Source: a virus | IMG/VR virus record: IMGVR_UViG_3300029787_000001 | Span: 1 to 64,000 of that record | Length of the DNA stretch: 64,000 bases | Direction: 5' to 3' (one strand) | Shown here: one piece after another, positions 14,135-55,325 of the stretch | Numbering within the stretch: position 1 is the stretch's first letter | Layout: every line of letters begins with the position of its first letter | Notes under the pieces: generated by a model | What the model was told of the DNA's origin: nothing | Database searches by the model: none | Seen by the model: only the letters and a program-made list of their open reading frames with translations | Position numbers and translations under genes: made by a program

Positions 14135-14135
14135 A

Positions 14136-33746: not shown

Positions 33747-33804
33747 CGCCCAGCCCTTGACAGCAGGCGATCACCCGGATAGTCTATCTATACAGGGAGA
33801 GACA

Positions 33805-34251
33805 ATGTGTAGCCTACCCAAAGAGTATGACACGGGACCATTCGCCGAGAGGACGATGGTTTATCGAGGACGCAACTCGCGCTACTTCAACATCGCTCGC
33901 AAGGCTGCACTCTGCTCTGAGCAGACTGATTACAAGCACGGCGCCGTGTTGGTGAAGGGGGGCTCCGTAATCAACACAAGTTGCAATAAGAATCGGCTTG
34001 TCTCCTTTGGCTCCCGTTTCTGCACTGAGCACGAGGGAACACCAACTCTGCATGCGGAGTTGGGAGCTATTCTCGGACTTGACCGGAGCATCACAGAAGG
34101 CGCTTCTATCTATGTCTGCCGTGTTGGGAAAGATAATGGCTTTCGCCTTTCAAAGCCCTGCTCCATGTGTCACCAAGCAATGATTCATGTTGGGATCAAA
34201 AGGGTGTTTTGGTCTATTGATAACTACTCTTGCGCCATGGGGAAACTATGA
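33805..34251 (+). CDS. Zn-dependent cytidine/dCMP deaminase-like protein
   Basis: HGAVLV, HAE, KPCSMC. Confidence 0.85.
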   Translation: MCSLPKEYDTGPFAERTMVYRGRNSRYFNIARKAALCSEQTDYKHGAVLVKGGSVINTSCNKNRLVSFGSRFCTEHEGTPTLHAELGAILGLDRSITEGASIYVCRVGKDNGFRLSKPCSMCHQAMIHVGIKRVFWSIDNYSCAMGKL

Positions 34252-34646
34252 GACGTTGCGGCATTTGCGGCGAGCCCGGTCATTACCGAAGCACCTGCAC
34301 CAATAAAAGCACGGCAGGCAGCAAGCCCTCGATCAAGAAGGCAAAGTCTGTCAAGCCCATTGCTGACGAGTTTGAAGAGGACGACGGAGATTACGAAGAG
34401 ACTCTTTGTGATGAGTTTTGGCGTCCACTCAAGAAGGAAAAGAAGAAGAAAGTCATCCTCTGTTCTGTTTGTGGAGATGAAGGGCACAATGCGGCAACCT
34501 GCTATTACAGCAAGCCACCGCCTGATGTTCTTGGACCCACGATTATGGAATGTGGACACTTTACTTGGTGGATGGAAGACGGTGAATGCTCTCGCTGCAA
34601 CCAACGCCAGAAGCTAAGAGAACAATCCTATGAAGCAGCAGCATAA
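34248..34646 (+). CDS. Protein with two CCHC zinc knuckles
   Basis: CGICGEPGHYRSTC and CSVCGDEGHNAATC. Confidence 0.8.
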   Translation: MRRCGICGEPGHYRSTCTNKSTAGSKPSIKKAKSVKPIADEFEEDDGDYEETLCDEFWRPLKKEKKKKVILCSVCGDEGHNAATCYYSKPPPDVLGPTIMECGHFTWWMEDGECSRCNQRQKLREQSYEAAA

Positions 34647-34759
34647 GGAGAACTAACAATGAGCTTTTGTAAAAATTGCCAATTGAAAACAATCCACATT
34701 GTTGGAATTGTATTTGCTCTTGGTGTTATGTTGCTTGAATTTATTTAGGAGAACGAAGA

Positions 34760-34951
34760 ATGAAAGTCGGTGACCTTGTTAAACTTTCTCACATTGACTA
34801 CCCTCAGTACGTGAACCTGAAGGGGATTTTGATGGAAGAGGTTTTTCCACAAAAGTGGAAGGTTTACATCAAGGGCAAGATGCATCCTTACCTCGTCCAT
34901 CAAGTAAGCTTCGCCAACCACTGGAGAACGAATGATTCACATCACAGGTAA
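34760..34951 (+). CDS. Small MKVGD-family protein
   Basis: MKVGDLVKL after GGAGAACGAAGA. Confidence 0.7.
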   Translation: MKVGDLVKLSHIDYPQYVNLKGILMEEVFPQKWKVYIKGKMHPYLVHQVSFANHWRTNDSHHR

Positions 34952-35528
34952 GATCCCAAGAAGAGTTGCTGTCGCTGTAAGTGGCGGCATTGACTCTATG
35001 GCAGCCCTCGACTTTCTTCGCAGGGCTCATGATGTTGTTGTGTTGCACTACAACCACGGCACACCTTATGCTCCAAAGGCAGAGGCTCTTGTTCGTGCCT
35101 ATTGCATGAAGCACAAACTAACCATCGTCATCGGAAGATGCGAGGAAGAGATGCCCGATGGCGTTTCCCCTGAAGCGTGGTGGCGAGAAAAACGTTACAA
35201 GTTCTTTGAAGAAGCAACAACTTCGCCCATTGTCACGGCACACCACCTTGACGATCAGGTTGAGAACTGGATCTTCACAAGTCTCAATGGTAACCCATTC
35301 TTGATCCCGCACAAGCGCGATCAGTTCATCCGACCTTTCTTGACCACAGAGAAGCGAGACTTTACGATGTGGTGCATTCGCAAAGAAGTGCCAACGATCA
35401 GCGATCCCAGCAATGGAGACTATCGCTACAGGCGCAACTACATTCGCAATGTAATGATGCCGCACGTCACACACATCAATCCCGGCATCAAGAAAGTAGT
35501 GAAGAAGAAAGTCCTTGACAGCATGTGA
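34932..35528 (+). CDS. tilS: tRNA(Ile)-lysidine synthase-like, PP-loop domain only
   Basis: AVSGGIDS, HHLDDQVE, RPFL, DPSN...RRNYIR; 198 aa. Confidence 0.85.
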   Translation: MIHITGKIPRRVAVAVSGGIDSMAALDFLRRAHDVVVLHYNHGTPYAPKAEALVRAYCMKHKLTIVIGRCEEEMPDGVSPEAWWREKRYKFFEEATTSPIVTAHHLDDQVENWIFTSLNGNPFLIPHKRDQFIRPFLTTEKRDFTMWCIRKEVPTISDPSNGDYRYRRNYIRNVMMPHVTHINPGIKKVVKKKVLDSM

Positions 35529-35565
35529 TCGCCCGGTTAAGTTACAAGAGTAAGGAGAGAGACAC

Positions 35566-35736
35566 ATGACCACTGACGAACTGCGACACAACTATGCCGA
35601 CGCCTTCATCGCCCTTGTGATGGATGGTGCTGAGGGAAGCGCCCTCGATGTTCATCACCGCGATGCGATCATTCTCGCACTACAGGATGCGATCGAGTTC
35701 TTCTCGGCGGCTGAATACGGCACCGAGATTTCTTAA
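35566..35736 (+). CDS. Small early protein
   Basis: Own promoter and AAGGAG RBS; 56 aa. Confidence 0.65.
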   Translation: MTTDELRHNYADAFIALVMDGAEGSALDVHHRDAIILALQDAIEFFSAAEYGTEIS

Positions 35737-35807
35737 ATAAATCCTTGACAGCAGACGACCACCCGGTTAGATTAACAGAGTCCCAAGAGGACAAGGAGAC
35801 AAAGCAA

Positions 35808-35957
35808 ATGAGCATCGAACTTATGCAGCAGATTTCTAACATTCTCACCACCACTATCCTTTTCTATGCCACCCTGATTGGCATGTGCTCCCTTGTCATT
35901 GTGCATGAGGCGCGGAAGTTCATCAATGGACTCCCGACTCCCCGTCAGATTTCTTAA
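35808..35957 (+). CDS. Small single-TM early protein
   Basis: Own promoter, AAGGAG RBS. Confidence 0.6.
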   Translation: MSIELMQQISNILTTTILFYATLIGMCSLVIVHEARKFINGLPTPRQIS

Positions 35958-36086
35958 AAAAACACTTGACAGCCGCTACCCTGTCGGTTAGATTACAGGG
36001 GTAAGGAGGAAGACAGCGACCTCCCGACGCAAAAAAAACGCACTTGACAAGCCGCGCCCTCCCGGTTACAATAGGAGGGACACCAC

Positions 36087-36163
36087 GGGGAGATAGCTCA
36101 ATTGGTCAGAGCATCAGTCTCATAAACTGCCGGTTCCGAGTTCAAGTCTCGGTCTCCCTACCA
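36087..36163 (+). tRNA. tRNA-CAT (Ile2 or elongator Met; not initiator)
   Basis: Cloverleaf, loop CTCATAA, encoded CCA, no GGG/CCC anticodon stem. Confidence 0.92.
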
Positions 36164-36225
36164 TCTTAACACTATAGGTGTTGTCCCTACCTTAAAAGGG
36201 GCGCTCATAACTACAAGGAGAAAAT

Positions 36226-36429
36226 ATGAGTACCACTATCACCAGCAGCCTTATCCGCGAGGCAACCTTCGACGCCAACAGCCGCACGCTTACGGTCGTC
36301 CTCAACAGCGGTCGCGAGTACACCTATCAGGGTGTCGATCAGTCAGTCTACCAGGGTCTCGTCTCTGCTGACTCTGCCGGTCGCTTCTTCAACAAGAACA
36401 TTGTTGGTAAGTTCACGACCTCTTCCTGA
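36226..36429 (+). CDS. KTSC domain protein
   Basis: SS.I...FD....L.V....G..Y.Y.GV....Y..L..A.S.G.FFN..I. Confidence 0.9.
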   Translation: MSTTITSSLIREATFDANSRTLTVVLNSGREYTYQGVDQSVYQGLVSADSAGRFFNKNIVGKFTTSS

Positions 36430-36468
36430 TAAAGGAAAGCCCCGCCCCCGGCTTTGTAGGGGGCTCAC

Positions 36469-36544
36469 GCACCTATAGCTCAATTGGAAGAGCATCGGTT
36501 TTCTACACCGAGGGTTGAGGGTTCGAGTCCTTCTGGGTGTACCA
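36469..36544 (+). tRNA. tRNA-Arg(TCT)
   Basis: TCGGT-TTTCTAC-ACCGA, GTTCGAG T-loop, CCA. Confidence 0.93.
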
Positions 36545-36597
36545 TTTAGCCGACTCTGGGCTTTATCAGAGAACAAATAAAAAGGAAACAGAAAGTA

Positions 36598-36750
36598 ATG
36601 CGTAACATTATGATTCTCGCAGCCGCCATCATGGTAGGTTGTGGAGACAAGGACGAGGACACTGGCAGCGACACTGCCGAGGCTCAGGACACCGACGATG
36701 GTGGAGAGCCAGAAGACACTGGTGGGGAAGACACCGCTGTCGTAGAGTAA
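36598..36750 (+). CDS. Small acidic lipoprotein-like protein
   Basis: MRNIMILAAAIMVG-C lipobox, then DT(G/A/D) repeats. Confidence 0.7.
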   Translation: MRNIMILAAAIMVGCGDKDEDTGSDTAEAQDTDDGGEPEDTGGEDTAVVE

Positions 36751-36758
36751 GTAAGAAG

Positions 36759-36787
36759 CCGCTGGCACACCGGTTAAAGTGTGCCAC
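36759..36787 (+). repeat. Hairpin repeat copy 1
   Basis: CCGCTGGCACACCGGTTAAAGTGTGCCAC, 8-bp stem. Confidence 0.95.
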
Positions 36788-36990
36788 ACATGCTCACCAC
36801 CAACATAGGGTCCGAGTAGGTACAGGGAACTGGCTTCAGCGCTAATGCTGACTAAGATGATCCAGTAACGGAAACAACGCTCACCCGTGAGCGGGTCATG
36901 CTAATGATGTTGGAAACAATGTATAGGACAAGTTGATCACTTGTCCGAAAAGACGCCTAACAGAGATTAGGAGTGTCCCTGACATTGCAA
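36788..36990 (+). ncRNA. Candidate structured RNA between two hairpin repeats
   Basis: At least six complementary stems, no RBS/ORF. Confidence 0.5.
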
Positions 36991-37019
36991 CCGCTGGCAC
37001 ACCGGTTAAAGTGTGCCAC
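36991..37019 (+). repeat. Hairpin repeat copy 2
   Basis: Identical 29-mer, 5 nt before tRNA-Gln. Confidence 0.95.
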
Positions 37020-37024
37020 TTTAT

Positions 37025-37100
37025 TGGGACGTGGCGCAATTGGTAGCGCATCGGTTTTTGGCACCGAGGGTTGTAGGTTCGAGTCCTACCGTCCCAGCCA
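37025..37100 (+). tRNA. tRNA-Gln(TTG)
   Basis: U1-A72, G73, loop TTTTGGC, CCA. Confidence 0.9.
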
Positions 37101-37266
37101 CTTAAGAGGAAATAACATGAGCACAGTAGAGTTATGTTTTGGAATTTTGATTTCTGCAACGGTCATTATTGCCGTGATTCAGTACAAACTTTCAGAGTCT
37201 CCCGATCGTCGTAAATAAAAACACTTGACACCCGCACCTCTCCGGGTTACAATAGAGAGGACACAA

Positions 37267-37352
37267 GCCAGCGTGGTGGAATGGTATACACAGCAGACTC
37301 AAAATCTGCCGGTCTTATGACCTTGCGAGTTCGAGTCTCGCCGCTGGTACCA
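37267..37352 (+). tRNA. tRNA-Leu(CAA)
   Basis: GCAGA-CTCAAAA-TCTGC, long variable arm, CCA. Confidence 0.94.
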
Positions 37353-37375
37353 CTTTTCAAACAGGATAAAGCAAA

Positions 37376-37768
37376 ATGGGCATTTTTATCGTAACAGCAA
37401 CTCACACGGACGACGATTATAAGCGTCCCCACGTAAGCAGTGAAACTGCGATGGCCACTTCTCACGAAGACGCTGTTGTGCGTGCAGTAGAGTTCTATCT
37501 TGAAAGGCTCGATGGTGGCTATTCTTTCGATTACCACAATCCATCAGGGTTCAATAAGGTAATCGAGCAGCACCGAAACAGCCCACAGACTCTATTCTCA
37601 GCACTTTACGATTACTTTGAGAGCAACCCAGAAGGAATGTTTACTGGCGAGTTTGTCCCAGAAACCCTAAATGTGACCATTAGCGAAAACGAACACGTCC
37701 CGCTTGATACAAAGCCAATCCTATCTATGGTTGACGAGGTTTCTCGTTACATCAGAGAGGAAATGTAA
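37376..37768 (+). CDS. Hypothetical protein
   Basis: 130 aa ORF between tRNAs. Confidence 0.7.
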   Translation: MGIFIVTATHTDDDYKRPHVSSETAMATSHEDAVVRAVEFYLERLDGGYSFDYHNPSGFNKVIEQHRNSPQTLFSALYDYFESNPEGMFTGEFVPETLNVTISENEHVPLDTKPILSMVDEVSRYIREEM

Positions 37769-37782
37769 CAATAGAATATTTT

Positions 37783-37858
37783 GGGTCTATAGCTCAATTG
37801 GCAGAGCATCGGACTTTTAATCCGCAGGTTCTGGGTTCGATTCCCAGTGGACCCACCA
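37783..37858 (+). tRNA. tRNA-Lys(TTT)
   Basis: Loop CTTTTAA, CCA. Confidence 0.94.
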
Positions 37859-37877
37859 TTTAAAATAAGGAGAAGAG

Positions 37878-38402
37878 ATGTTTAAGAAAGTTTTGGCATG
37901 CATATTGTGCCTGGGGTTGTCAACAGCCGCATACGCTCAGGCGCCCGTAGCCGAGGATGCAGACGCATCTAAGATGGACTGGAATACTCGCAAGGGCATC
38001 CGGTTTGGATACAACTATGCAAACAAGGCAGATGAGTCAGACAAGCTTCAGAGCCCACACATGTTTGTGATTGGCTTTGAGATGCAGCAGACAATGGACG
38101 GCGATTCGTGGCTCGACTTGCTTTTTATTCAGAACTTGACCATCAGTGGTTTGGACCAAAGTGTTGTTCTTCCATCTGGAAACGCGCTTGTCGGATTTGA
38201 AATCAAAGATGCACTACAGTTGGCAGTGGGCGCTAACGCCACTATCGTTGATCCTTCTGATGAGGACCACTATGTACATCTTGTTACTGCGGTCGGGTGG
38301 ACGCAGGATGCGGGAATCTTCAGCGTCCCAGTTCATCTTATCTTTGTCCCAGATGTCAATGACTATTATAGGGTTGCAGTTACTACCGGGATTAACTGGT
38401 AG
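37878..38402 (+). CDS. Secreted/outer-membrane beta-rich protein
   Basis: Signal peptide ending AYA, alternating beta strands, aromatic C-terminal W. Confidence 0.7.
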   Translation: MFKKVLACILCLGLSTAAYAQAPVAEDADASKMDWNTRKGIRFGYNYANKADESDKLQSPHMFVIGFEMQQTMDGDSWLDLLFIQNLTISGLDQSVVLPSGNALVGFEIKDALQLAVGANATIVDPSDEDHYVHLVTAVGWTQDAGIFSVPVHLIFVPDVNDYYRVAVTTGINW

Positions 38403-38422
38403 TCATTGTAAATAACCGCAGG

Positions 38423-38446
38423 GAGGCACGGGTTTACAGGTGCCTC
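38423..38446 (+). repeat. Variant of the GGCAC..GTGCC hairpin
   Basis: GAGGCAC-GGGTTTACAG-GTGCCTC, 7 nt before tRNA-Glu. Confidence 0.65.
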
Positions 38447-38453
38447 AACTTTT

Positions 38454-38528
38454 GCTCCCATAGTTTAGCGGTTAGAATGCCGGCTTTTCACGCCGGAGGT
38501 CGGGGTTCGATTCCCCGTGGGAGTACCA
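38454..38528 (+). tRNA. tRNA-Glu(TTC)
   Basis: CCGGC-TTTTCAC-GCCGG, CCA. Confidence 0.92.
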
Positions 38529-38533
38529 TTTTT

Positions 38534-38609
<76 letters not shown>

Positions 38610-38670
38610 CTTTCCACTTGACACCGTCAGCCCCTCCGGTTACAATAGAGGGGAGGCACAGAACACTTAT

Positions 38671-38745
38671 CGAGAACAACGCGCGGGGTGTGCGGCCAGT
38701 TTTGGGTACTGGAAGTGCCGGGTTCAACTCCCGGGTTCTCGACCA
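38671..38745 (+). tRNA. Atypical tRNA-Pro(TGG)
   Basis: C1-G72, A73, CCA, CCAGT-TTTGGGT-ACTGG, T-arm intact; non-canonical positions 8/14 and D-loop. Confidence 0.75.
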
Positions 38746-38774
38746 TTTAACCTTTATTGAGATTGAGATAACAA

Positions 38775-38996
38775 ATGAGCAAGATTAGTATCCCACTCAC
38801 ATCACTGCTCCTGGCAGGATGCCCAGTAGCAATGGCTTTCGATCAGCCCACACTACCAGAATGCGTAATCGATCGGTGTGAAGAAAAAGTTTGCACAGTC
38901 GAGACACCAGAGGGCACAGTCGAGATTGCCAAGAAGAGGCACTATCAAGAGGGCACGCCAGTTGTGTGTCCGCTTTGGCTGATTGACCCCCGGTGA
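38775..38996 (+). CDS. Small Cys-rich exported/lipoprotein-like protein
   Basis: LLLAGC, five more Cys. Confidence 0.6.
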   Translation: MSKISIPLTSLLLAGCPVAMAFDQPTLPECVIDRCEEKVCTVETPEGTVEIAKKRHYQEGTPVVCPLWLIDPR

Positions 38997-39058
38997 CATT
39001 CCGTGACTTGACAGGCGCCCTCCAACGAGCTACATTACAAGAGTAACAGGGAGACAGA

Positions 39059-39265
39059 ATGTTTAAGGTCGGCGATGTCGTAAGAGGCAACACAGTTGAC
39101 ACCAGTCTATCAACTGCGTCCCAGAGAGCCTCCACTGGAATCATCACCAAGATCGATGAATGTGGTGCGATTTCGCTGTGTTGGCTTTTTGGTAAAGTCA
39201 AGTGCAAGGGCAAAGAGTTTGGCGGCTTTAGGAAACAAGAACTTGAACTGGTGAGCGAAGCATGA
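39059..39265 (+). CDS. Small MKVGD-family protein
   Basis: MFKVGDVVRG. Confidence 0.7.
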   Translation: MFKVGDVVRGNTVDTSLSTASQRASTGIITKIDECGAISLCWLFGKVKCKGKEFGGFRKQELELVSEA

Positions 39266-39444
39266 AAGTCGGTGACCTTGTGAAGTTTACTGCCGGGTTC
39301 GCTGGCGCTGAGCGCCGGCAACGCGGCATTGTCGTTTGTTTTGATAATGACAATGACCCAGTGGTTTTGTGGCTTGGTTCAGGGTGGAACGGCTACCGTG
39401 AGGCAAATTTTCGCAATCACATTGCAGTGCTTTCTGAGGCGTAG
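39262..39444 (+). CDS. Small MKVGD-family protein
   Basis: MKVGDLVKF. Confidence 0.7.
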   Translation: MKVGDLVKFTAGFAGAERRQRGIVVCFDNDNDPVVLWLGSGWNGYREANFRNHIAVLSEA

Positions 39445-39580
39445 CGAACTACTTATTGCCTCAAAGTAGGAGAGTAAAATGGACAGAGACCTCATGGCTG
39501 ATATCGGCGTAGTAGCCACAGTAATCAGCATGTTTTTCATTGTAACAATCTTTATGTGCTGATTGAAAACTATTTAGGTT

Positions 39581-40405
39581 ATGTGGCGCTCTGTTGTTTT
39601 AACCTTACTACTACAATCACAACCAAGTTGGCTGGAAATAGGCGACGCTCAATCGCGCTGTAGCCTCCAAGGTTGTCTTGTTGAGGCAACAACAACAAAG
39701 CCAATCCCACAAACAATCGAGAACATAGTAAAAGAACAAACATCGGTTTTCTATGAAGAAGACCGATTTTTTCTACATTATGATCTCCGCAAAAGGATTA
39801 GAGATTTCTTACAGGAACACCCAAACCAAACAAGATTCATCATTACAGGCTGGACTGATGGCTGCGGAGAACACGATTACAACAAAGAGCTATCCAGAAA
39901 GAGAGCAGATGAAGTTGCACGTTACATAATGCAACTTAGAAGGGGTGCTCTTGTAGAGTTGCGCTGGGTTGGAGAAGCAACTGGAAAACACACGATTAGA
40001 GCCCGTAGAGTGGATGTCGCTGTGCTGAAAAAAGCACAACAAACAATCACACCCCCCAAGATTATTTATGATTATTATTTGATCGATGCAAGTGGCTCTA
40101 TGTCCGGTCCTAAATGGAATAAGTGGACTAACGCTATCGCTTATTGGCGAAAGCCGACCTCCAAAGTTTATGTTTCTTCTTCTGGCTACATTCCTGCTTG
40201 GAGCATTCTACAAAACATTGGACCTTATGGTTCTACCGAGATTTGGCTGTCCTTGTGGAGCGTTCTTGATGAAATGAGCGCTGGGCAGACTTTGGTTGTG
40301 ATCAGCGACTTTAACTCTGAAGTTCCGCTTTCTGGACGAGAGCGTGAAAGGATCAGCCAGAAGGCACGCACCAGAGGGGTGAGGATCGACTACGTGAGAC
40401 TGTGA
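39581..40405 (+). CDS. Exported OmpA-like peptidoglycan-binding domain fused to vWA-like domain
   Basis: ITGWTD..G...YN..LS..RA..V and LIDASGSMS. Confidence 0.8.
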   Translation: MWRSVVLTLLLQSQPSWLEIGDAQSRCSLQGCLVEATTTKPIPQTIENIVKEQTSVFYEEDRFFLHYDLRKRIRDFLQEHPNQTRFIITGWTDGCGEHDYNKELSRKRADEVARYIMQLRRGALVELRWVGEATGKHTIRARRVDVAVLKKAQQTITPPKIIYDYYLIDASGSMSGPKWNKWTNAIAYWRKPTSKVYVSSSGYIPAWSILQNIGPYGSTEIWLSLWSVLDEMSAGQTLVVISDFNSEVPLSGRERERISQKARTRGVRIDYVRL

Positions 40406-40470
40406 CAAAGATCGTAGCGATTAGCCCTTGACAGACTCGACCCGGTCGGTTACATTATGAGGGAGGAGCA

Positions 40471-40665
40471 GTGGTGGAGCAGATTTCGTTTGTTATCCCC
40501 TTTGGCGACACCAGCGACCCCGAACAGATCGCCGCCCGCATCGCCAAAGAGCTACAGTTTCTCTCTTGGTTTGTGAAACAAGAAGAAAAGAATAATGACG
40601 ACGATGGCGTCGCAGCAACAACATTTACTTTGTCCGGCTGGACTACAAAATGGCAGGTAGAATGA
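40471..40665 (+). CDS. Small early protein
   Basis: Own promoter, GGAGG RBS, GTG start. Confidence 0.55.
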   Translation: MVEQISFVIPFGDTSDPEQIAARIAKELQFLSWFVKQEEKNNDDDGVAATTFTLSGWTTKWQVE

Positions 40666-40925
40666 AAGTAGCAGAACTAAAGGTCGGAGAACTTTACAAG
40701 ATTCGCTCAGATCGAGAGACACATGTCGCTATTCGGCGTGGATTTCTTGATGTTCATTTGGGCAGTGGGCTTTTCCAAACCGAAGGCGCAAAGATTCGCC
40801 CAATGGACCATCTTATCTATCTTGGACAAGATCGCCACAACACACGCTGGGTCAACTATCGTGGCAAGAAGCTGCGCGCCTATCCCAACATCTGGCAACA
40901 CATTACGCTACTGGAAGAGGGATGA
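40662..40925 (+). CDS. Small MKVGD-family protein
   Basis: MKVAELKVGELY. Confidence 0.65.
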   Translation: MKVAELKVGELYKIRSDRETHVAIRRGFLDVHLGSGLFQTEGAKIRPMDHLIYLGQDRHNTRWVNYRGKKLRAYPNIWQHITLLEEG

Positions 40926-41318: not shown

Positions 41319-41329
41319 GAGGAGACAGA

Positions 41330-47005: not shown

Positions 47006-47008
47006 TTC

Positions 47009-47444: not shown

Positions 47445-47514
47445 CAAAGATCGTAGCCGTCCAGCCTTGACAAACAGGGCTGGGCGTGTTACATTATAGA
47501 AGTAAGGAGGCACC

Positions 47515-48747
47515 ATGCCTGACAACAAGAAGCCATTTGACCTAAACCTGCACACAGCGCGGCTTCTCATGAGGGAACCATTTTTTGCTGCACTCTCACG
47601 GCGCATCGACAAGATCCGCACTGACAGTGTGCCGACTGCCGGTGTGCGGGTCAACCCTGACACCGCTCAGTTTGAGCTTTTCTACAACCCAGACTTCATG
47701 AGTTCTTTGTCTGACGACCACAAGATGGGCGTGCTCATGCACGAGTTCTATCATCTTGTTTTCGAGCATGTGACGACTCGCAAGCCAGAAGGCGGCATTC
47801 GCCAGATCGATAACATTGCCATGGATCTCTCGATCAACGGCATCTCCGAGATGCGTGGAAAGTTGCCCTGTGAGGCTTCTCCCGGTCCCGTCGTCACTCC
47901 CGGCGGTGAGCCGATGAAGGCGTGTCTGCCCGGCGAGGGCAAGTTTGCTGACCTGCCCGCCAATCAGACCTATGAGTGGTACCTCGCTGCTCTTGAGAAG
48001 ATGCAGGAAGAGGCAGAGAAGAACGGCGAGGGCAATCCTTTCGGTGACGCTGACTCGTTCGATGACCACGACGGCTTCGGCGAGGGCGGTGGCAATCAGG
48101 CAGCCAACGAGATCGCGAAGGAGCGCATGAAGGATGCGATCCGCAAGGCAGCAGAAGAAGCCGACAAGGCGGGCTCCTGGGGCTCCGTGTCCTCCTCGAT
48201 GCGGAAGTCTATCAAGGAGCGTCTCGCCACGAAGGTAGATTGGAAGAAGATGCTTCGCTACTTTGTACGCACAAGTCAGCGCGCCGACAAGCGGTCTACT
48301 CCGCGTCGTCTCAACAAGCGGTTCCCAAAGATTCACCCCGGCAAGCGGGTGCGTCGTCAGGCAAAGATCGCCATCTCCATCGACCAGTCCGGTTCTGTGG
48401 ATGATGGGATGCTCGCTGCGTTCTACTCTGAGTTGGACAACCTCGCACAGTTTGCCGAGTTTACTGTCATCCCGTTTGACACGGAAGTTGCGACCGACAA
48501 GGTTTATGTGTGGAAGAAGGGCGAGCGCCGGAAGGCTGAGCGTGTCCTGCATGGCGGAACCTGCTTCGATGCCCCCACACGGTTCGTCAATGATGGCAAG
48601 TTCGACGGACACATCGTGCTCACCGACATGATGGCTCCCAAGCCAATCGCCAGCAAGTGTCAGAGGATGTGGATGACGACCAGCGAGTACGCCCACAACC
48701 CCTACTTTTCCACAAGAGAGGTCGTGGTGGCGATTGACCGCAAGTGA
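47515..48747 (+). CDS. HExxH metallopeptidase-like plus vWA domain protein (DUF2201-type)
   Basis: HEFYH, NIAMDLSIN, IDQSGSV, GGT.F, LTD. Confidence 0.9.
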   Translation: MPDNKKPFDLNLHTARLLMREPFFAALSRRIDKIRTDSVPTAGVRVNPDTAQFELFYNPDFMSSLSDDHKMGVLMHEFYHLVFEHVTTRKPEGGIRQIDNIAMDLSINGISEMRGKLPCEASPGPVVTPGGEPMKACLPGEGKFADLPANQTYEWYLAALEKMQEEAEKNGEGNPFGDADSFDDHDGFGEGGGNQAANEIAKERMKDAIRKAAEEADKAGSWGSVSSSMRKSIKERLATKVDWKKMLRYFVRTSQRADKRSTPRRLNKRFPKIHPGKRVRRQAKIAISIDQSGSVDDGMLAAFYSELDNLAQFAEFTVIPFDTEVATDKVYVWKKGERRKAERVLHGGTCFDAPTRFVNDGKFDGHIVLTDMMAPKPIASKCQRMWMTTSEYAHNPYFSTREVVVAIDRK

Positions 48748-48832
48748 GACATCTGAAGACAAAGATCGTAGCGATTGACACTTGACAGACTCACCCCAGC
48801 AGGTTACATTACAAGAGTAACAGGGAGAGATA

Positions 48833-49018
48833 ATGTTTCTCAACATCCACCACCGCCACCTCCGTCCCCCGCCAGAGCCGGTGGTGTTCTTCTGCCGCCA
48901 CTGCGGGCACGGCTCCAAGAGGGACGGCGAGCGCATTCGCAAGGGCTCGTGGGCTGCTCACTGGGGCGGCGAGGGTTGCCCTGATTGCGGTACCTCCACT
49001 CCCCCCAAGAAGTGGTAA
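48833..49018 (+). CDS. Small Zn-ribbon protein
   Basis: CRHC...CPDC; own promoter. Confidence 0.7.
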   Translation: MFLNIHHRHLRPPPEPVVFFCRHCGHGSKRDGERIRKGSWAAHWGGEGCPDCGTSTPPKKW

Positions 49019-49022
49019 GCAA

Positions 49023-49223
49023 GTGACTGACGATGAAAGGATTGTAAATGCGTTTGTCAATCACTGGGGACTCACTTTAGAGGAAGCCCGCAAGGAGTTG
49101 ACAAAGGCAAAGGCGGACGCCAAGAAGAAGGCATGCCGACGAGAGGCTGAAAAGCAGTCACTCTGGAACAACGACAAGGATTGGGACTACTACCCAACCT
49201 TCCCAGAAAAGAAGGAACAATGA
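49023..49223 (+). CDS. Small hypothetical protein
   Basis: Operon ORF. Confidence 0.6.
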   Translation: MTDDERIVNAFVNHWGLTLEEARKELTKAKADAKKKACRREAEKQSLWNNDKDWDYYPTFPEKKEQ

Positions 49224-49405
49224 AGCATCCTTTCAAAGTTGGTGATCTTTTGCGAAGCAGGATGAACCGAGAAAACCTCGCCATCGTTTTGCAAGTTTAC
49301 ACAATGGACGGGCGCCCTTATTTGGATGTGAAATATCTCCGTGGCGATGTAGTCCCTTGTGTGCCTCTCCAGCGTTTTACCCTTATTTCGAGAGCAGAAC
49401 AATGA
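49220..49405 (+). CDS. Small MKVGD-family protein
   Basis: MKHPFKVGDLL. Confidence 0.65.
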   Translation: MKHPFKVGDLLRSRMNRENLAIVLQVYTMDGRPYLDVKYLRGDVVPCVPLQRFTLISRAEQ

Positions 49406-49593
49406 AGCCCATTCTCAAGACAATCGCCAAGGACATCATCGTCCTGTCCGCCCAGGCTCTCGCCTTTCGACTGGCAGCGCCCCAGGATCAGCAGCAGGAC
49501 ATCGTTTTCGCTGCTGTCCCAACGAAGGGCTCCACCGCGCTCAAGGCACTTCCCGCCGATGATGAGCCACAGGCACGCAAGGTCGGCTTCTGA
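49402..49593 (+). CDS. Small hypothetical protein
   Basis: Coupled ATGA. Confidence 0.6.
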   Translation: MKPILKTIAKDIIVLSAQALAFRLAAPQDQQQDIVFAAVPTKGSTALKALPADDEPQARKVGF

Positions 49594-50150
49594 GACATTC
49601 CAAGACAAAGATCGTAGCAGAAACACCTTGACAGATTGGCTCTAACAGATTACATTACAAGAGTAACAGAGACGGAGAAAGAACATGGAAGACCTGACCC
49701 CCCTGGACATCGCGCTTGAGACCACTGACCGAGTGATCGCAGCCATCACGACGCAGGCGACAGCAGCCCTGATTCCAGAGAACTCCGAGACGTTCCTGAT
49801 CGCCTACTGTGCCATGCTCGCTCCGGCAGAAGCATGAGCCAGGATCTCCGATTCCAGTGCGACGTGATTATGCTCTGCGCTGCTGGGATCTTGATCTGTG
49901 TCCTGCTCGCCTCAATCTTCCAAGAGTTCGGATGGACACTGTAGGCTGCCCCAGCCCGGACTATTTACTTTCGAGGTCCACCATGGCAAAGCGCAAGAAC
50001 AAGACCCCCAAGGGTCGCAACGTGATCGCCGTCGCTGCGATCACCCGTTCAGGCTGCAAGAAGCTCTGAGACGCTCAAAAAAAAGATAACAGAAAGACCT
50101 TGACAGATAAGACATAGCAGGTTACTTTGTAGAAGTAACAAGGAGAGCGA

Positions 50151-50357
50151 ATGTTCACTATCGGCAATCACATCCAGTTCACCTCCACCGGCTGTCGCGG
50201 TCTGGTGGTCAAGATCACCAAGCACGAGGGCGGCTGCGATGGTCGCGGCACTGAGTTCGTTCACGTCCTCTGCGGACCTGACGCTGACGGCGAGCACGGA
50301 GGTGAGACCATCGGCTTCCCGCGCCTGCATCTCGAAATGGTCGCAGAGGTCCTGTAG
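50151..50357 (+). CDS. Small KOW-like early protein
   Basis: Own promoter; FTIGNHI...G.RG.V. Confidence 0.7.
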   Translation: MFTIGNHIQFTSTGCRGLVVKITKHEGGCDGRGTEFVHVLCGPDADGEHGGETIGFPRLHLEMVAEVL

Positions 50358-50552
50358 ACCAGAGATTTCAGAAACAATCAAAAAAGCCCTTGACAGAAAC
50401 CCCCTGCCGCATTACATTACAAGAGTAACAAGGAGAGTGAGAGATGACCACCAGACAGAAGATGGCTGCTGCCGTAGTTGTTGACTATGCCTGCTGGTTC
50501 TCGCTTGGCTTTGTTGTTGGCTACTTCGTACTCTGAACACAAAGAGGATAAT

Positions 50553-50825
50553 ATGACTCGCAATGATTCCGTCGTCTCCGCTTTCGCCTCCGGTCGCCCT
50601 GCTCGTGCAGGAGCACTCCGCACCGATGGTCGCTCCCTCTACTCCTACGATCTGAAGATCGCCGAGAAGACCCTCGCCGGTGTGGTCGTCAGTGACTACA
50701 CCTCTGGTGGTGGACTGTTCGTCTCGCAGACCACGAGCCGCCACGTCGGGCTCGCAAGGCGCGTCGCAGACACAGTGATGCTCCCAGAGCAGTTCAAGGC
50801 ACTCTTCGTCAAGATGCCCTTCTGA
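50553..50825 (+). CDS. Small early protein
   Basis: GAGG RBS; LYSYDLKIA, TTSRHV. Confidence 0.7.
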   Translation: MTRNDSVVSAFASGRPARAGALRTDGRSLYSYDLKIAEKTLAGVVVSDYTSGGGLFVSQTTSRHVGLARRVADTVMLPEQFKALFVKMPF

Positions 50826-51007
50826 TGGGCGTTCTCGTCTCACTCTGCGAACACCGCGCCAAGCTCCGGCAGGAGGAGCAGGCGAAAACGCAGGAAGAAC
50901 TTGATCAGTTGAAGATTCTGGTGCGTGCCTGGGCGAATGCCATGGGAGATCCAGAGGTCAAGCCCTACTTCCTTCCCCTTGACGATCACCTGACAGAAAG
51001 TCCTTGA
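50825..51007 (+). CDS. Small early protein
   Basis: TGATG coupling; stop lies in next -35. Confidence 0.6.
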   Translation: MGVLVSLCEHRAKLRQEEQAKTQEELDQLKILVRAWANAMGDPEVKPYFLPLDDHLTESP

Positions 51008-51051
51008 CAGATTAGGCTCCTCAGGTTACATTACATGCATAAGAAGGAGAG

Positions 51052-51276
51052 ATGATGCTTCGCACTTCGCTGCCGCCCGGCACACTTGTCGAGATTCCTA
51101 CCGCGCATGGTCGTGGGTGGTTCCGCGCCCTCGTTCTCTCTGACTGGTTTCCGCGCGGTGGGGCTCACTGGTTCACGATCAGCGCCCTTGAAGCCGTCCC
51201 CGCCGCCTTTATTGAAAAGGGCGCGGTGCTCGACATCATGGACGACCCGCTCGATTTTCGTGTAGTTTCTGCTTGA
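51052..51276 (+). CDS. Small early protein
   Basis: Own promoter and RBS. Confidence 0.7.
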   Translation: MMLRTSLPPGTLVEIPTAHGRGWFRALVLSDWFPRGGAHWFTISALEAVPAAFIEKGAVLDIMDDPLDFRVVSA

Positions 51277-51323
51277 CAGAACACGATCACCGGACTACAC
51301 TACACGCACAAGAGGGAGAGAGA

Positions 51324-51557
51324 ATGAAGAAGAAGAAGCTGACCCCAAGCCTCCACGGCGACATTGGAATCGACACCCGCTCCAACCGCCAGCCCCGCAA
51401 CGTGATCGGCTACGCAGCCGAGCCCGCTGGAATCAGCGGCGGTCGCGTGTGGCGCCTGCACAAGGGGCAGCGCAAGTCCTGGCTGTGTGACACGGTGTTG
51501 CTCTCGACTGCCGAGAACATGGCAGCAGACGGCAATCTCGCCATCACGGAGAAGTAG
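51324..51557 (+). CDS. Small early protein
   Basis: Own promoter and RBS. Confidence 0.65.
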   Translation: MKKKKLTPSLHGDIGIDTRSNRQPRNVIGYAAEPAGISGGRVWRLHKGQRKSWLCDTVLLSTAENMAADGNLAITEK

Positions 51558-51633
51558 AAATAAAAGATCGCAGCAGAAAGTGCTTGACAACTCGCCCTGA
51601 GCGAGTTACATTACATGCAAGAAAGGAGAGCAC

Positions 51634-51864
51634 ATGAACGACCCCCGTGCGCAGTTCCGCGCACTTCGCCCGCCCACTGTTGGTTCGATGGTTATGCTGC
51701 CGGACCCGGACGAGACTGGCGAGACCCTCCACACTGTCATCCGTCGCGTTCGCGGCTCTGTGTACCGACTGGAGCACGATGACACCGGTGAGGAGGTCAC
51801 CGCCGACCTCGCCCAGAAGGGCACTGTCTGGACGGTCGGCTCGACCACCTACCGAATCGACTGA
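51634..51864 (+). CDS. Small SH3-like early protein
   Basis: Own promoter and RBS. Confidence 0.7.
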   Translation: MNDPRAQFRALRPPTVGSMVMLPDPDETGETLHTVIRRVRGSVYRLEHDDTGEEVTADLAQKGTVWTVGSTTYRID

Positions 51865-51942
51865 ACATTCTTTCCCGTTTCCCCTTGACAAGTGGAGCGG
51901 GACAGGTTACATTACAAGAGTAACAAGAAAGGAGAGATAACA

Positions 51943-52092
51943 ATGTTCCCCTACTTCCACCACTTCGCCGCTGTCATCTTCAACGATGTCCTCCTGAACC
52001 GCAACGATGCGGGTCTGCGGCAGAATCTCCGGTACCTCGCGCAGGACCTCGGCATCATCCCCGTCGATGACTGGGCGAGCAGCACCGACTGA
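51943..52092 (+). CDS. Small early protein
   Basis: Own promoter and RBS. Confidence 0.6.
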   Translation: MFPYFHHFAAVIFNDVLLNRNDAGLRQNLRYLAQDLGIIPVDDWASSTD

Positions 52093-52173
52093 GCGAACTT
52101 TCCTTCCACTTTCCCCTTGACAGAAGAACCCAGACAGGTTACATTACAAGAGTAACAAGAAGGGAGAGAAAAG

Positions 52174-52392
52174 ATGAACCAGATCGAAGCCCTCGACGTG
52201 CTCACGATGCACGATCTCTTCGGAGACGGCAGGCGCGACACCCTCACCGCCGCCATCGCGGTGATCGAGCCCATCGCCACCCGCCGCGCCCACAACGGGA
52301 CCGGCGACAGCATCGACTTCATGCTGGAGATGGTGCAGGGCGCCCGCGAGGATCTGTCTCGCATGGCTCCGTGCCCGTCCGGTCGCTGGTAG
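52174..52392 (+). CDS. Small early protein
   Basis: Own promoter and RBS. Confidence 0.7.
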   Translation: MNQIEALDVLTMHDLFGDGRRDTLTAAIAVIEPIATRRAHNGTGDSIDFMLEMVQGAREDLSRMAPCPSGRW

Positions 52393-52490
52393 CGCACACT
52401 GCTGAGAGGGCAGCGGGTTCGACTCCCGCACGGGTTAGCATCTGGCCGGCTGGTTGCTTCATGGGTTCGAGTCCCATGACCGGTAGCTCT
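52372..52490 (+). ncRNA. Tandem tRNA-like T-arm elements
   Basis: GCGGG-TTCGACT-CCCGC (52413-52429) and ATGGG-TTCGAGT-CCCAT (52461-52477); no full cloverleaf or CCA. Confidence 0.5.
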
Positions 52491-52627
52491 GCACGGACCC
52501 GTAGGGCGGCGACTCCCTCTCACTTTCCTTCCACTTTCCCCTTGACAGACTGACCCTAACGGGTTACATTACAAGAGTGAGAGGGAGACAGACTCCCCTC
52601 CAATCCCCAAGCAAGTGAGTTGACACC

Positions 52628-53038
52628 ATGGCTAACCTCTTCGTCCTGAACCTCGTCGGAACCACCGCCCCCCTCGCCGCAGACAAGAACGCCAACCGCC
52701 TGATCGCTCTCGCGGTCGATATGCTCGCAGGCGACAGTGCCCCGGAGCCGGTCGAGGTCCCCGACACCGACGCCCTCCGCGCTGCCCTGTTCACCCGCGT
52801 CGCCACTGGTGAGGTCTCCCCGGCAGACTGCGCCGCCGAACTGAAGGCAATCGATCAGCAGGTCGCTGACGCTGCGAAGGCTGCGAAGGCTGACCCGCCC
52901 GTGCTCTCGCTCGCTGGCACGCCGGCGTCCGCTGCGATGATTAAGAGGGCGTTTCGCGGAGCGGAGTCCGGCACGAGCGTGGAGGTCGCAAGCCTCGACG
53001 GCGAGCGCGTCGGTTCGATCACAATGTTTCGTTGTTAG
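52628..53038 (+). CDS. Ala-rich early protein
   Basis: Own promoter, 136 aa. Confidence 0.7.
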   Translation: MANLFVLNLVGTTAPLAADKNANRLIALAVDMLAGDSAPEPVEVPDTDALRAALFTRVATGEVSPADCAAELKAIDQQVADAAKAAKADPPVLSLAGTPASAAMIKRAFRGAESGTSVEVASLDGERVGSITMFRC

Positions 53039-53118
53039 GAATGTTCCGGGTCTGAGACTCCAAAAAAAGATAACAGAAAGCCCTTGACAGGTGAGCCCAT
53101 CCGGGTTACATTATAAGG

Positions 53119-53289
53119 GTAACAAGCGACAAGAGGTCCGCGACATGAAAGGTCCGAACTGAACATTCATGCATAGGCTGGGAGGCGTCCCACCTGTGAG
53201 CAGTAGCAAGAGCGACGCACAGAGGTGAACCTGACCCGAACGGGAGGGAACCTGCCTCTTCAAACACGACAGCAATAGTCCAACCCAGC
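53119..53289 (+). ncRNA. Candidate structured RNA from promoter 53084
   Basis: No RBS/ORF; nested stems GGCTGGG/CCCAGCC, GCGTC/GACGC, AGAGG/CCTCT, CATGAA/TTCATG. Confidence 0.55.
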
Positions 53290-53315
53290 CCGCTGGCACA
53301 CCGGTTAAAGTGTGC
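53290..53315 (+). repeat. Hairpin repeat copy 3
   Basis: CCGCTGGCACACCGGTTAAAGTGTGC. Confidence 0.95.
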
Positions 53316-53325
53316 TCCCCTTTCT

Positions 53326-53511
53326 ACGAGAGCCGATCACCTCGCGCCAACGAGAAGCATCGGAGACATTGCACAGGTTTGGCGACCTGTGACGTGTGGG
53401 GCATAAGGTGCCCCGATGGCTTGACCGAACCTCGCAACCCACGCCACCAACGAAGGCGCAGGAGCGACAAGTAGCCGGTCATCTCTGCGGGTTCAACTCC
53501 CGCCTCTCGTT
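53326..53511 (+). ncRNA. About 185-nt RNA closed by tRNA-like acceptor stem and T-arm
   Basis: ACGAGAG/CTCTCGT 7-bp stem stacked on GCGGG-TTCAACT-CCCGC; at least five internal stems. Confidence 0.65.
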
Positions 53512-53604
53512 TCCTTTACAGTCCGAGACAGCAAAAAAAGATAACCCTAACCCCTTGACAGACTAACGGCAGCGCGTTACATTACATGTAAGAAGGGAGA
53601 GACA

Positions 53605-53766
53605 ATGTTCGCACTGATTACCTGGGAAAGCATCACTGGTCCCTGGACCGTCCGCGAGGGTCTGCCCTTCGCCTTCGCAATGTCGATGGCAAGGAATGGC
53701 GGCTTCGCCCGTGCGCAGGTCATCGACGAGCACGATCAGATCATGGCAGAGTTCAAGGCTGCCTGA
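53605..53766 (+). CDS. Small early protein
   Basis: Own promoter and RBS, 53 aa. Confidence 0.6.
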   Translation: MFALITWESITGPWTVREGLPFAFAMSMARNGGFARAQVIDEHDQIMAEFKAA

Positions 53767-54056
53767 GCCTTCCTTCCGAGAACTCATAAAAAGATAAACA
53801 CTATCCCCTTGACAAGAAGAAGAGGATAGGTTACATTACCAGTAAGAAGAGAGATAGACAATGGAAGACATGATTCACATGCTCATTTTGATTGTCCTTG
53901 TCCTTCTGACTATGTTGGTGGTAGAGGTAGCTAAGAGCACTGACACCATTTGACCCCTGCATGACCCTTGTGATCCACTAAGTGTCACAGGTTAATGAAA
54001 GTTATTTGACATTCTTTACTATTGGTGTTATGCGGTGTCATAGAGCCGCGCTGGCA

Positions 54057-54094
54057 TGTGAGGGGGTTGGGCGTTGTGATCTGGCCCCCTCACA
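54057..54094. terminator. GC-rich hairpin (terminator-like or structural)
   Basis: TGTGAGGGGG / CCCCCTCACA 10-bp stem; no clear U-tract. Confidence 0.45.
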
Positions 54095-54191
54095 CGCAAA
54101 CTGTCAAGGACAATAATCGTCCGCATTACCGTGCAGCACGGCATTGACAGCAAGTCCGCCACGTGTTACATTACACACCAGAGGAGCCCCC

Positions 54192-54356
54192 ATGTGGATT
54201 ATGACCTACGACTGTGCAGACCGCGACCGGCAGACGATGCGCTTCGCATCGCTCCAGGCAGCAACCGACGCTGCCCTGCGTGCCCAGTGCGGTGGATGGA
54301 CCGTCTACAGCATCCATCAGGCAGAAATGCCCAAAAACAAGAATGCCCACCAGTAG
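54192..54356 (+). CDS. Small early protein
   Basis: Own promoter, GAGGAG RBS. Confidence 0.65.
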   Translation: MWIMTYDCADRDRQTMRFASLQAATDAALRAQCGGWTVYSIHQAEMPKNKNAHQ

Positions 54357-54457
54357 CGCATTCATATAGGCACTTTGCTTATACGAGAGATAAAAATAAA
54401 ACAGCTTGACAAGCACCCGCTTTCAGGTTACATTACTTGTGTAATGAGGGAGAACTA

Positions 54458-54670
54458 ATGAGCTACAACCGCGTCCTCGAAACCCGTGAGCACCCCGTGT
54501 GGGACTGCGTCCAGAAGGACTACCCCGAGGCTAAGCTCATCGCAGTGCGGACGGACGCCATCAACTTCGCAGTCGGTCGCCGCATCTGGCTGGCACACTT
54601 CGACTACAATCAGACGGATGTCGAGTGGTACGAGGACGTGACCCGGTTCGTGCCAGACGCTCTCCGATAG
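54458..54670 (+). CDS. Small early protein
   Basis: Own promoter and RBS. Confidence 0.7.
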   Translation: MSYNRVLETREHPVWDCVQKDYPEAKLIAVRTDAINFAVGRRIWLAHFDYNQTDVEWYEDVTRFVPDALR

Positions 54671-54739
54671 TTAGCACTTTCCCCTTGACAGCAACAGCAT
54701 AACAGGTTACATTAGTTGGGTAGCCAGCAAGGAGCCCAC

Positions 54740-54997
54740 ATGACCATTCGCCACCACCTCGGCATGCCCCTCGTCGCCCGCAACGTCAAGCGCCTGGGAG
54801 AGTTCGCCATGTGGGACGAGCACACCTGCGAGCTTCGCACCACCACCGGCACCTTCGTGCTCTGGTTCCCGATCGGCAAGGACACGACGGACGATGAGAT
54901 GATCGCCATGTGCCGTGACGCCCTGAGCGGTCACGTCTACGAGGGCAACCGGATCGTCACGAGGACTGCGCCCCCCATGATCAAGCGCGCACGATAG
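54740..54997 (+). CDS. Small early protein
   Basis: Own promoter and RBS. Confidence 0.7.
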   Translation: MTIRHHLGMPLVARNVKRLGEFAMWDEHTCELRTTTGTFVLWFPIGKDTTDDEMIAMCRDALSGHVYEGNRIVTRTAPPMIKRAR

Positions 54998-55055
54998 CCC
55001 TTGACAGCAAGGGCAGAACAGGTTACATTAGTTGGGTAATCAGAAAGGAGCCGAT

Positions 55056-55256
55056 ATGCCGACGACGAAGCTGAAGTACGATGTCGAGATTGTCTACTCA
55101 ATCCTCGGTGACGGCACTACGGGTGTTCACCGTCTGCGTTGCCGCTTGGAGGAGCTGGACAGTGCCCACACTTGGGGGGCTCTCCAGCGCGCCGGGAAGT
55201 CCCGCGCGGAGGTCCACTGTGTGCGCTGGCTCAACCGCCCGCGTCCACAGGGATAG
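55056..55256 (+). CDS. Small early protein
   Basis: Own promoter and RBS. Confidence 0.65.
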   Translation: MPTTKLKYDVEIVYSILGDGTTGVHRLRCRLEELDSAHTWGALQRAGKSRAEVHCVRWLNRPRPQG

Positions 55257-55325
55257 GGCGAAGAAGCCGCTTGACAGCCCGCCTCTGGCGGGTTACATTA
55301 CTTGTGTAATCAGACAGGAGAACTC

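Follow-up and report, generated by a model that had tools for sequence, protein, structure and literature searches.

The DNA analyzed here, referred to below as the window, comprises bases 1–64,000 of the 191,359-bp IMG/VR virus record IMGVR_UViG_3300029787_000001, which was judged complete. Its source is an uncultured marine T4-like myovirus; the plus strand carries all long open reading frames (ORFs) of the 191-kb genome, and a gp23-type capsid gene lies at 161.4–163.1 kb of the genome (Pfam Gp23, E = 7e-60), with nearest cultured relatives (36–47% identical) in Microcystis phage Mel-JY01, Flavobacterium 'immuto' phages, and RM378. Positions 33757–55299 form a hyperplastic region of ORFans, transfer RNAs (tRNAs), and small RNAs that is occupied by an array of repeated promoter-leader cassettes. 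The larger genes of this region encode a dCMP-deaminase-like protein, a PP-loop/TilS-like protein, an OmpA-domain protein, two Zn-finger paralogues, a MoxR-like ATPase, and a DUF2201 VWA-like protein, and each cassette is followed by between one and four small ORFs, a group of tRNAs, or a structured RNA.

The original prediction of about 36 copies of a promoter and ribosome-binding-site unit described this region accurately. We identified 35 same-strand cassettes in 21,543 bp (table 1) plus a weak 36th at 42931, a count that takes in two weaker -10 boxes (TAGTCT at 33757 and TAAGTT at 35515), an N16 TTGATC site (43207), and a site with the degenerate -35 GTGGCA (45190). A perfect TTGACA is present in 33 of the 35, and the spacing of 17 bp, which the original prediction gave as fixed, holds for 34, the site at 43207 being the single departure. 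Allowing at most one mismatch, TTGACA-N17-TACATT matches the window 36 times, always on the plus strand, against 0.41 expected from shuffles, and 31 of these matches fall in 35745–55299. Across the whole genome there are 26 forward copies of the exact motif and one reverse copy, and 24 of these 27 lie at 39.0–55.3 kb. Early-type sites are likewise concentrated (32 of 53 forward matches genome-wide in 30–60 kb) and are nearly absent from the 100–170 kb span, where long ORFs and the gp23 capsid gene are found. The median distance between cassettes is 425 bp, and the last 6.5 kb (48.8–55.3 kb) hold 18 of them, or one per 362 bp.

Aligned on the -35 box, the cassettes have high information content at C-1, TTGACA, G+1, C+18, GGT, TACATT, and A, and conserved positions reach past the -10 box into the leader (G.GTAA..AAGGAG). 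A GGAG-type Shine–Dalgarno (SD) sequence followed by ATG or GTG is found in 28 of 35 units, the others preceding tRNAs or noncoding leaders, and in 25 of the 28 coding units the start codon lies 19–29 nt past the -10 box. Leaders are less structured than background (minimum free energy [MFE] -6.1 vs. -8.9). Three cassettes with a TACAAT-type -10 box precede tRNA groups, and four or five have no ORF directly behind them, being followed instead by a hairpin or a long noncoding stretch. The sequence upstream of the -35 box falls into several subclasses, as had been proposed: class A (stop-CAAAGATCGTAGC-N9), class B (GAGAC-N3-AAAAAAAGATAAC), and class C (CACTTTCCCC). An A-run occurs between -25 and -1 in 12 of 34 cassettes (class B), and AT-richness is not a feature of classes A and C. 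The predicted overlap of the -35 box with the end of the preceding gene was also observed, within the array at 35515 (PP-loop/TilS-like gene), 41280, 42105, 51004, and 51273, and outside it at 10923 (purA), 11912 (UvdE), and 13373 (methyltransferase); at 51004 and 51273 the stop codon of the preceding gene is the TGA within TTGACA.

Comparison with close relatives revealed crossovers inside cassettes. When metagenome contigs were scanned for the window-specific class-A element, 82 loci were recovered, the majority of which are homologous to the array region; the scan of viral contigs for this element gave only an unrelated chance match (L096). One metagenomic contig, L106, is 96.5% identical to window positions 40400–52483 and differs from it by seven structural events. 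Where the window has cassette 22, ORF73, and cassette 23, L106 has a single chimeric cassette that is identical to cassette 22 up to the leader (ACATGCATAAGA) and to cassette 23 from the SD onward (GGGAGAGAGAATG) (event g). In place of cassette 18, L106 and another contig, L154, carry a cassette, an extra ORF, and a second cassette, with the join in the leader (event d). In a further event, which leaves L106 without ORF68, the -35 box, spacer, and -10 box of cassette 21 are preceded by the upstream element that belongs to cassette 20 in the window. The unit 43179–44135 (cassette 12 and its Zn-finger gene) is missing from both L106 and L154, and the crossover is contained in a 40-bp repeat that immediately precedes cassettes 12 and 13. 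Cassette cores make up 8.8% of the sequence and account for three of the seven events (p = 0.018); with 100-bp cassette intervals the figure is four of seven (p = 0.014). In L036 and L041, which belong to another branch and are ~90% identical, units have been translocated, and homology ends within cassettes in 9 of 20 and 12 of 19 cases against a coverage of 7.5–9.8% (p = 6e-6 and 2e-8).

Two or three further junctions located in cassettes are contributed by L137 (85% identical), which lacks the unit 53089–53521, with the join in the class-B upstream element (AAAAAAAGATAAC), as well as the three units at 51584–52522; its homology to the window stops within the cassette 30 leader, and past that point 2.3 kb of other DNA stands in place of 2.7 kb of window ORFans. 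The relative G001 (ATPase 94% identical, DNA 72–80% identical) is colinear with the window, and the two gene maps share a few conserved anchors among many lineage-specific ORFs. Several of the differences have cassettes on either side in both genomes. Nonhomologous genes, ORF73 in the window and ORF84 in G001, occupy the same slot between the counterparts of the genes at 50825 and 51324, bounded by cassettes at 51004 and 51273 in the former and at 27377 and 27698 in the latter. The window has three extra promoter-ORF units between the conserved genes at 51324 and 52628, and the ORFs behind the TilS-like gene have been replaced, the G001 counterpart of cassette 2 (11393) being followed by a different ORF. 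Differences in the slots before 40471 and 41330 are not flanked by cassettes. Many cassette-flanked ORFs are missing in G001, L106, or L137. Between 45.7 and 52.5 kb, cassettes are nearer to paralogues in the same genome than to their G001 positional counterparts in 10 of 13 pairs. Spacers are 17 bp in the window against 16 bp in the G001 counterparts, which also lack the class-A element. Together, the likeness of paralogues, the spacer shift, and the missing class-A element indicate that cassettes have been homogenized or turned over within lineages.

Table 1. Cassettes of the array in window coordinates, with promoter and leader features and the units that they are predicted to drive
Cassette	Position	Strand	Promoter, upstream element, and leader	Predicted to drive
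1	33757–33804	+	TTGACA-N17-TAGTCT, GGGAGAG leader; positional counterpart G001 9584	dCMP-deaminase-like gene (33805–34251), Zn-knuckle ORF, MKVGDLV ORF, PP-loop/TilS-like gene (34932–35528)
2	35515–35565	+	within last codons of TilS-like gene	ORF56 (35566–35736)
3	35745–35807	+		ORF49 (35808–35957)
4	35966–36043	+	leader is GGAGG/CCTCC hairpin, then A-run	no ORF
5	36044–36086	+	TACAAT -10; spacer complementary to initial transcript	tRNA-Met (36087–36163) and downstream units
6	37225–37266	+	TACAAT	tRNA-Leu (37267–37352), ORF130, tRNA-Lys, ORF174, tRNA-Glu, tRNA-Asn
7	38618–38670	+	TACAAT, class C upstream	tRNA-Pro (38671–38745), ORF73
8	39008–39058	+	G001-type GTGAC upstream	ORF68, ORF60, OmpA-domain ORF274
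9	40428–40470	+	class A	ORF64 (GTG start), ORF91, ORF58, ORF77
10	41280–41329	+	within ORF77 3' end	ORF81, two MKVGDLV ORFs
11	42105–42152	+	within ORF76 3' end	ORF227 (kept in 60/80 relatives)
12	43207–43256	+	TTGATC-N16-TACATT, GTGACATTTGGTGAC upstream	Zn-finger ORF279
13	44210–44260	+	class A	paralogous Zn-finger ORF271
14	45190–45240	+	degenerate -35 GTGGCA	ORF87, ORF69
15	45745–45837	+	class A; hairpin leader, then A-rich tract	no ORF
16	45838–45922	+	class B-like, hairpin leader	MoxR-like AAA ATPase (45923–47005), two small ORFs
17	47467–47514	+	class A	DUF2201 VWA/metallopeptidase-like ORF410
18	48782–48832	+	class A	ORF61 and three further ORFs
19	49628–49684	+	class A	ORF50, ORF45
20	50100–50150	+	class B, TACTTT	ORF68
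21	50390–50443	+		ORF30, ORF90 (kept in 37/80 relatives), ORF60
22	51004–51054	+	ORF60 stop is TGA in TTGACA	ORF73 (not in L106)
23	51273–51323	+	TACACT; ORF73 stop within TTGACA	ORF77
24	51584–51633	+		ORF76 (not in G001, L137)
25	51885–51942	+	class C	ORF49 (not in G001, L137)
26	52117–52173	+	class C	ORF72 (not in G001, L137)
27	52542–52627	+	class C, hairpin leader	ORF136
28	53084–53554	+	class B	~430 nt without ORF (structured RNA candidate)
29	53555–53604	+	class B	ORF53
30	53809–53860	+	class B	ORF30
31	54144–54191	+		ORF54
32	54406–54457	+		ORF70
33	54685–54739	+	class C	ORF85
34	55001–55055	+		ORF66
35	55271–55325	+	last of the array	ORF62

Two variants of the leader stand apart. Four cassettes (35966–36043, 45745–45837, 45838–45922, and 52542–52627) have a 5'-proximal hairpin of the GAGAGGGAG-loop-CTCCC type that replaces or precedes the ribosome site; they have counterparts in G001 and in a further relative, G002, and in two cases the next promoter follows without an intervening ORF. 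Promoters predicted to drive tRNAs (TACAAT; 36044–36072, 37225–37253, and 38618–38646, as well as genome position 183915) have a spacer complementary to the start of the transcript, so that, for example, CCCTCC ... GGAGGG forms an inverted repeat spanning the -10 box. The T4 late motif TATAAATA was not enriched (four forward and four reverse matches).

A megablast search of the cassette region against 50,697 phage records gave no match. Relatives of the MoxR-like ATPase were found in 226 viral contigs, and 80 loci were taken for comparison. None of the 80 contains the exact cassette of the window, its flavor being specific to each lineage. The density of the array, remarked on in the original prediction, exceeds that of nearly all these relatives: with a uniform detector there are 1.13 cassettes per kb in the window against ~0.4 in most of them, and only L070 is denser. 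The L070 array (IMGVR_UViG_3300007538_000076, 1–15118), with ~25 cassettes in 15 kb and nearly identical 16-bp spacers (GATTCTCATAGTCGGT recurs), is more homogenized than that of the window. Of 396 predicted promoters in the relatives, a -35-like box stands at -15/-14 in 285 and at -26/-25 in 281, a pattern found in 42 of 49 loci having at least four promoters. The layout of these triple boxes is TTGACAT-N4-TTGACAA-N8/9-TTGACT, so that the extra boxes precede the true -35 by exactly 15 and 26 bp, and examples are found in L014–L049 and others (e.g., L036:8500–8620, L041:8140–8560, and L021:12750–12830). The window's lineage mostly lacks the extra boxes (2–4 of 26) and has the class A, B, and C elements instead. 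The triple boxes of the relatives are the least explained feature.

The G+C content rises from the genome average of ~44% to 52–58% across the right half of the array (44000–56000). Close relatives share this rise (L011, 53%; L012, 50%; L019, 51%), and more distant ones (L018, L021, and L052) do not, which suggests that the array genes of the window's lineage may derive from a higher-GC source.

Few of the array's ORFs are widespread, only 6–7 of ~70 being widely conserved among the 80 relatives, and none of the 19 small ORFs scanned had a match in PHROGs or Pfam. Homologues of ORF85 that are 77–89% identical do occur in marine metagenomes. ORFs of up to 100 amino acids have, as a set, a ratio of nonsynonymous to synonymous polymorphism (pN/pS) of 0.30 between the window and L106; as a set they are therefore real genes under purifying selection. 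To name them host-takeover genes, as the original prediction did, is conjecture. Ten small ORFs (60–83 amino acids) share MKVGDLV-like N-termini, their genes starting at 120, 513, 3863, 4057, 34760, 39059, 39262, 41572, 41744, and 47009; the coding motif supplies the commonest 9-mers in several relatives checked and has no match in Pfam. The Zn-finger paralogues (43257–44096 and 44261–45076) are in tandem and 36% identical, each with its own cassette. The gene is single copy in G001 and G002, and L106 and L154 lack the first copy; one copy is nearer to the G001 gene and the other to that of G002, as though unequal exchange had placed two alleles side by side. In the first 30 kb of the window are found a DNA polymerase, a GroEL-like gene, purA, UvdE, and a MunI-like/Dam-like gene pair. 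This last pair (11965–13376), consisting of a MunI-like restriction-enzyme fragment (162 amino acids, E = 1.4e-5) and a D12/Dam-class adenine methyltransferase (308 amino acids), forms one unit flanked by early-type promoters at 11912 and 13373.

T4 early promoters are strong host RNA polymerase (RNAP) promoters with conservation well beyond the two hexamers, clustered before small nonessential early genes. The array shares with them the conservation past the hexamers and the clustering ahead of small genes. They differ from its TTGACA boxes in having GTTTAC-type -35 boxes and A/T-rich UP elements, and T4 further employs AsiA/MotA/RegB control. The host-takeover module of the Bacillus phage SPO1 has dense co-oriented early promoters, strong ribosome sites, and many small genes. 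It belongs to an unrelated phage lineage and resembles the array in the layout of dense promoters and ribosome sites before small genes in one orientation; we know of no evidence that SPO1 promoters serve as recombination points. Cyanophage S-PM2 is, like the source of the window, a marine T4-like phage with a deletable ORFan block; only one host-like early promoter was found in its 'ORFanage' region, and a promoter-early stem-loop (PeSL) mechanism was judged unlikely by the authors (PMC4503421). The window's phage family does have a dense cassette array.

PeSLs, described in the T4-type phage pairs RB49/phi1, T4/PST, and KVP40/nt-1 (Arbiol et al. 2010, PMC2839356; Comeau et al. 2014, PMC4122927), are four-part elements in which a stretch rich in AT and a stem-loop terminator lead into a sigma-70-like promoter and then an SD with ATG. 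They concentrate in hyperplastic regions, with crossovers mapped between the -10 box and the SD/ATG (PMC2839356; PMC4122927). A further PeSL feature is that excised mini-circles form during infection. The analogy with PeSLs that had been drawn for the array holds in most respects. Both have a sigma-70-like promoter (TTGACA-N17-TATAAT in RB49) followed by an SD and start codon, both repeat in the intergenic spaces of hyperplastic ORFan regions, and both flank ORFs that differ between close relatives. Crossovers between the -10 box and the SD/ATG are shared as well, as in L106 events g and d, as are degraded and multiple -35 copies near shuffled sites. The array is denser, with 18 cassettes in 6.5 kb; RB49 has eight PeSLs in ~5 kb, and in nt-1 six successive ORFs have PeSLs over ~5 kb. 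It also differs in its TACATT -10 box, its lineage-specific upstream classes, and the presence of cassettes predicted to drive tRNAs and noncoding RNAs.

The analogy fails at the stem-loop terminator upstream of the promoter, which the array lacks, several of its -35 boxes overlapping the previous gene. Folding of the 110 nt upstream of each -35 box revealed no recurrent hairpin, and terminator-like sites are not enriched in the region (26 vs. 19.6 ± 4.5 expected), none of them standing before a -35 box. The upstream interval -50 to -1 is in fact less structured than random 50-mers of the region (mean MFE -7.6 vs. -10.4, p = 1e-4), and a T-run is present upstream in only 1 of 34 cassettes. Gaps between the stop codon and the -35 box are often just 9–50 nt, so there is mostly no room for a terminator. 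An upstream stem-loop or terminator was rejected on the folding, the terminator count, and the low upstream structure. The array behaves like a PeSL array and lacks one defining feature, and it is therefore an analogue and not a full PeSL member. Among the relatives of T4, coliphages and vibriophages were already known to show this crossover behavior of promoter cassettes, and the array is a variant of it without the terminator hairpin.

We consider it likely that the array is a set of ~35 promoter-leader cassettes, presumably early, that double as crossover points for gene deletion, insertion, and replacement. Each unit would comprise a near-consensus promoter of the host sigma-70 type (cTTGACAg, a 17-bp spacer ending in GGT, and TACATT), an A-rich discriminator and start region, and a 12–22-nt unstructured leader with a GGAG SD and ATG. 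Judged from their sequence and from where such sites lie in the genome, the promoters are predicted to be active, to be recognized by the host sigma-70 holoenzyme, and to fire early, and because there are no terminators between units the transcripts would be nested, reading through successive units. Since the cassettes are 60–100-bp direct repeats in a recombination-proficient phage, homologous crossovers at them would delete, insert, or replace the intervening genes, and cassette families would become partly homogenized within a lineage. Such shuffling may bring a selective benefit.

Several observations weigh against this reading. The idea of a recombination scaffold is borne out by the chimeric cassettes of L106 and L137, yet about half of the L106 differences (three or four of the seven events) bypass cassettes: a 150-bp deletion between two MKVGDLVK-coding gene starts (a 22-bp repeat), the precise loss of the gene at 49023–49223 without a repeat, and a 232-bp ORF inserted in L106 at window position 50054. 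Cassettes show no excess of change-points in divergence between the window and L106 (p = 0.31). The breakpoint enrichment expected across relatives appears for L106 and for L036/L041 but gave no signal in the more divergent pair L024/L031 and was not significant for L020/L066. Genes absent from G001 are weakly, and not significantly, enriched for a cassette of their own (16/27 vs. 13/34; odds ratio 2.35, p = 0.13). The breakpoint tests, moreover, use a uniform null, and viable indels must be intergenic where nearly all intergenic DNA is cassette; for this reason the chimeric cassettes are stronger evidence than the tests. Promoter function and early timing are predicted by analogy of sequence.

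Alternatively, the cassettes might be only strong promoters kept alike by selection for one optimum, with crossovers incidental to any repeat of at least 30 bp in a T4-like phage and adding no more gene flux than other repeats. Other short repeats are indeed used (the MKVGDLVK-coding gene starts and the 40-bp gene-end repeat), and the weak enrichment of variable genes for their own promoter and the negative change-point test point the same way. We nevertheless regard this alternative as rather unlikely: spacer and upstream sequence, unneeded for sigma-70 recognition, are common to paralogous cassettes and unlike those of the G001 positional counterparts, and the proportion of L106 events in cassette cores and the strong enrichment in L036/L041 also count against it. 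That the repeats are themselves a mobile element, MITE-like (miniature inverted-repeat transposable element) or integron-like with a dedicated recombinase, is extremely improbable. Units do stand at differing positions in L036 and L041, and cassette families are homogenized, but the junctions examined have no terminal inverted repeats or target duplications, attC-like palindromes were not seen, and this reading was set aside on these grounds, without a search aimed at a recombinase. Upstream regions less structured than background also argue against it, and the crossover point varies (-35 box, leader, or upstream element), as general homologous recombination predicts.

The upstream elements bear on a different alternative, namely that these are regulated promoters, middle-type or factor-dependent, whose triple boxes or class A, B, and C elements bind a phage or host factor. 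Although the extra boxes of the relatives are precisely phased at -15 and -26 and the window's upstream elements are conserved and lineage-specific, the core, with its near-perfect -35 and -10 boxes 17 bp apart, requires no activator, and the window's lineage keeps its array though the extra boxes are largely lost; we find this very unlikely. Pfam models for RegB, AsiA, and RegA had no match in the genome, a search that was also negative in control genomes and so does not show their absence. More speculatively, an ancestral cassette with three phased -35-like boxes (0, -15, and -26) might attract additional sigma-70 holoenzyme or a factor of the phage, acting as an RNAP antenna or sink, with the cassette as a self-homogenizing, exchangeable, terminator-less gene-cassette module; the window's lineage would then have swapped this platform for upstream elements of a new kind, and its cassettes would have multiplied to a density of one per ~360 bp. 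We hold this scenario to be doubtful, though it is conceivable.

If the cassettes are promoters that double as crossover points, the array offers ~35 ready-made units of predicted strong promoter, ribosome-binding site, and leader, together with a catalogue of selected, uncharacterized small proteins that are presumed to be early, and the phased triple -35-like boxes of its relatives represent an unexplained promoter architecture. Natural recombinants can be read straight from metagenomes, as the 82 marine contigs with the lineage-specific element illustrate. The terminator hairpin is not required for shuffling, and the shuffling of genes by promoter cassettes, documented before in coliphage, Yersinia-phage, and vibriophage pairs, extends to an abundant uncultured marine T4-like lineage.

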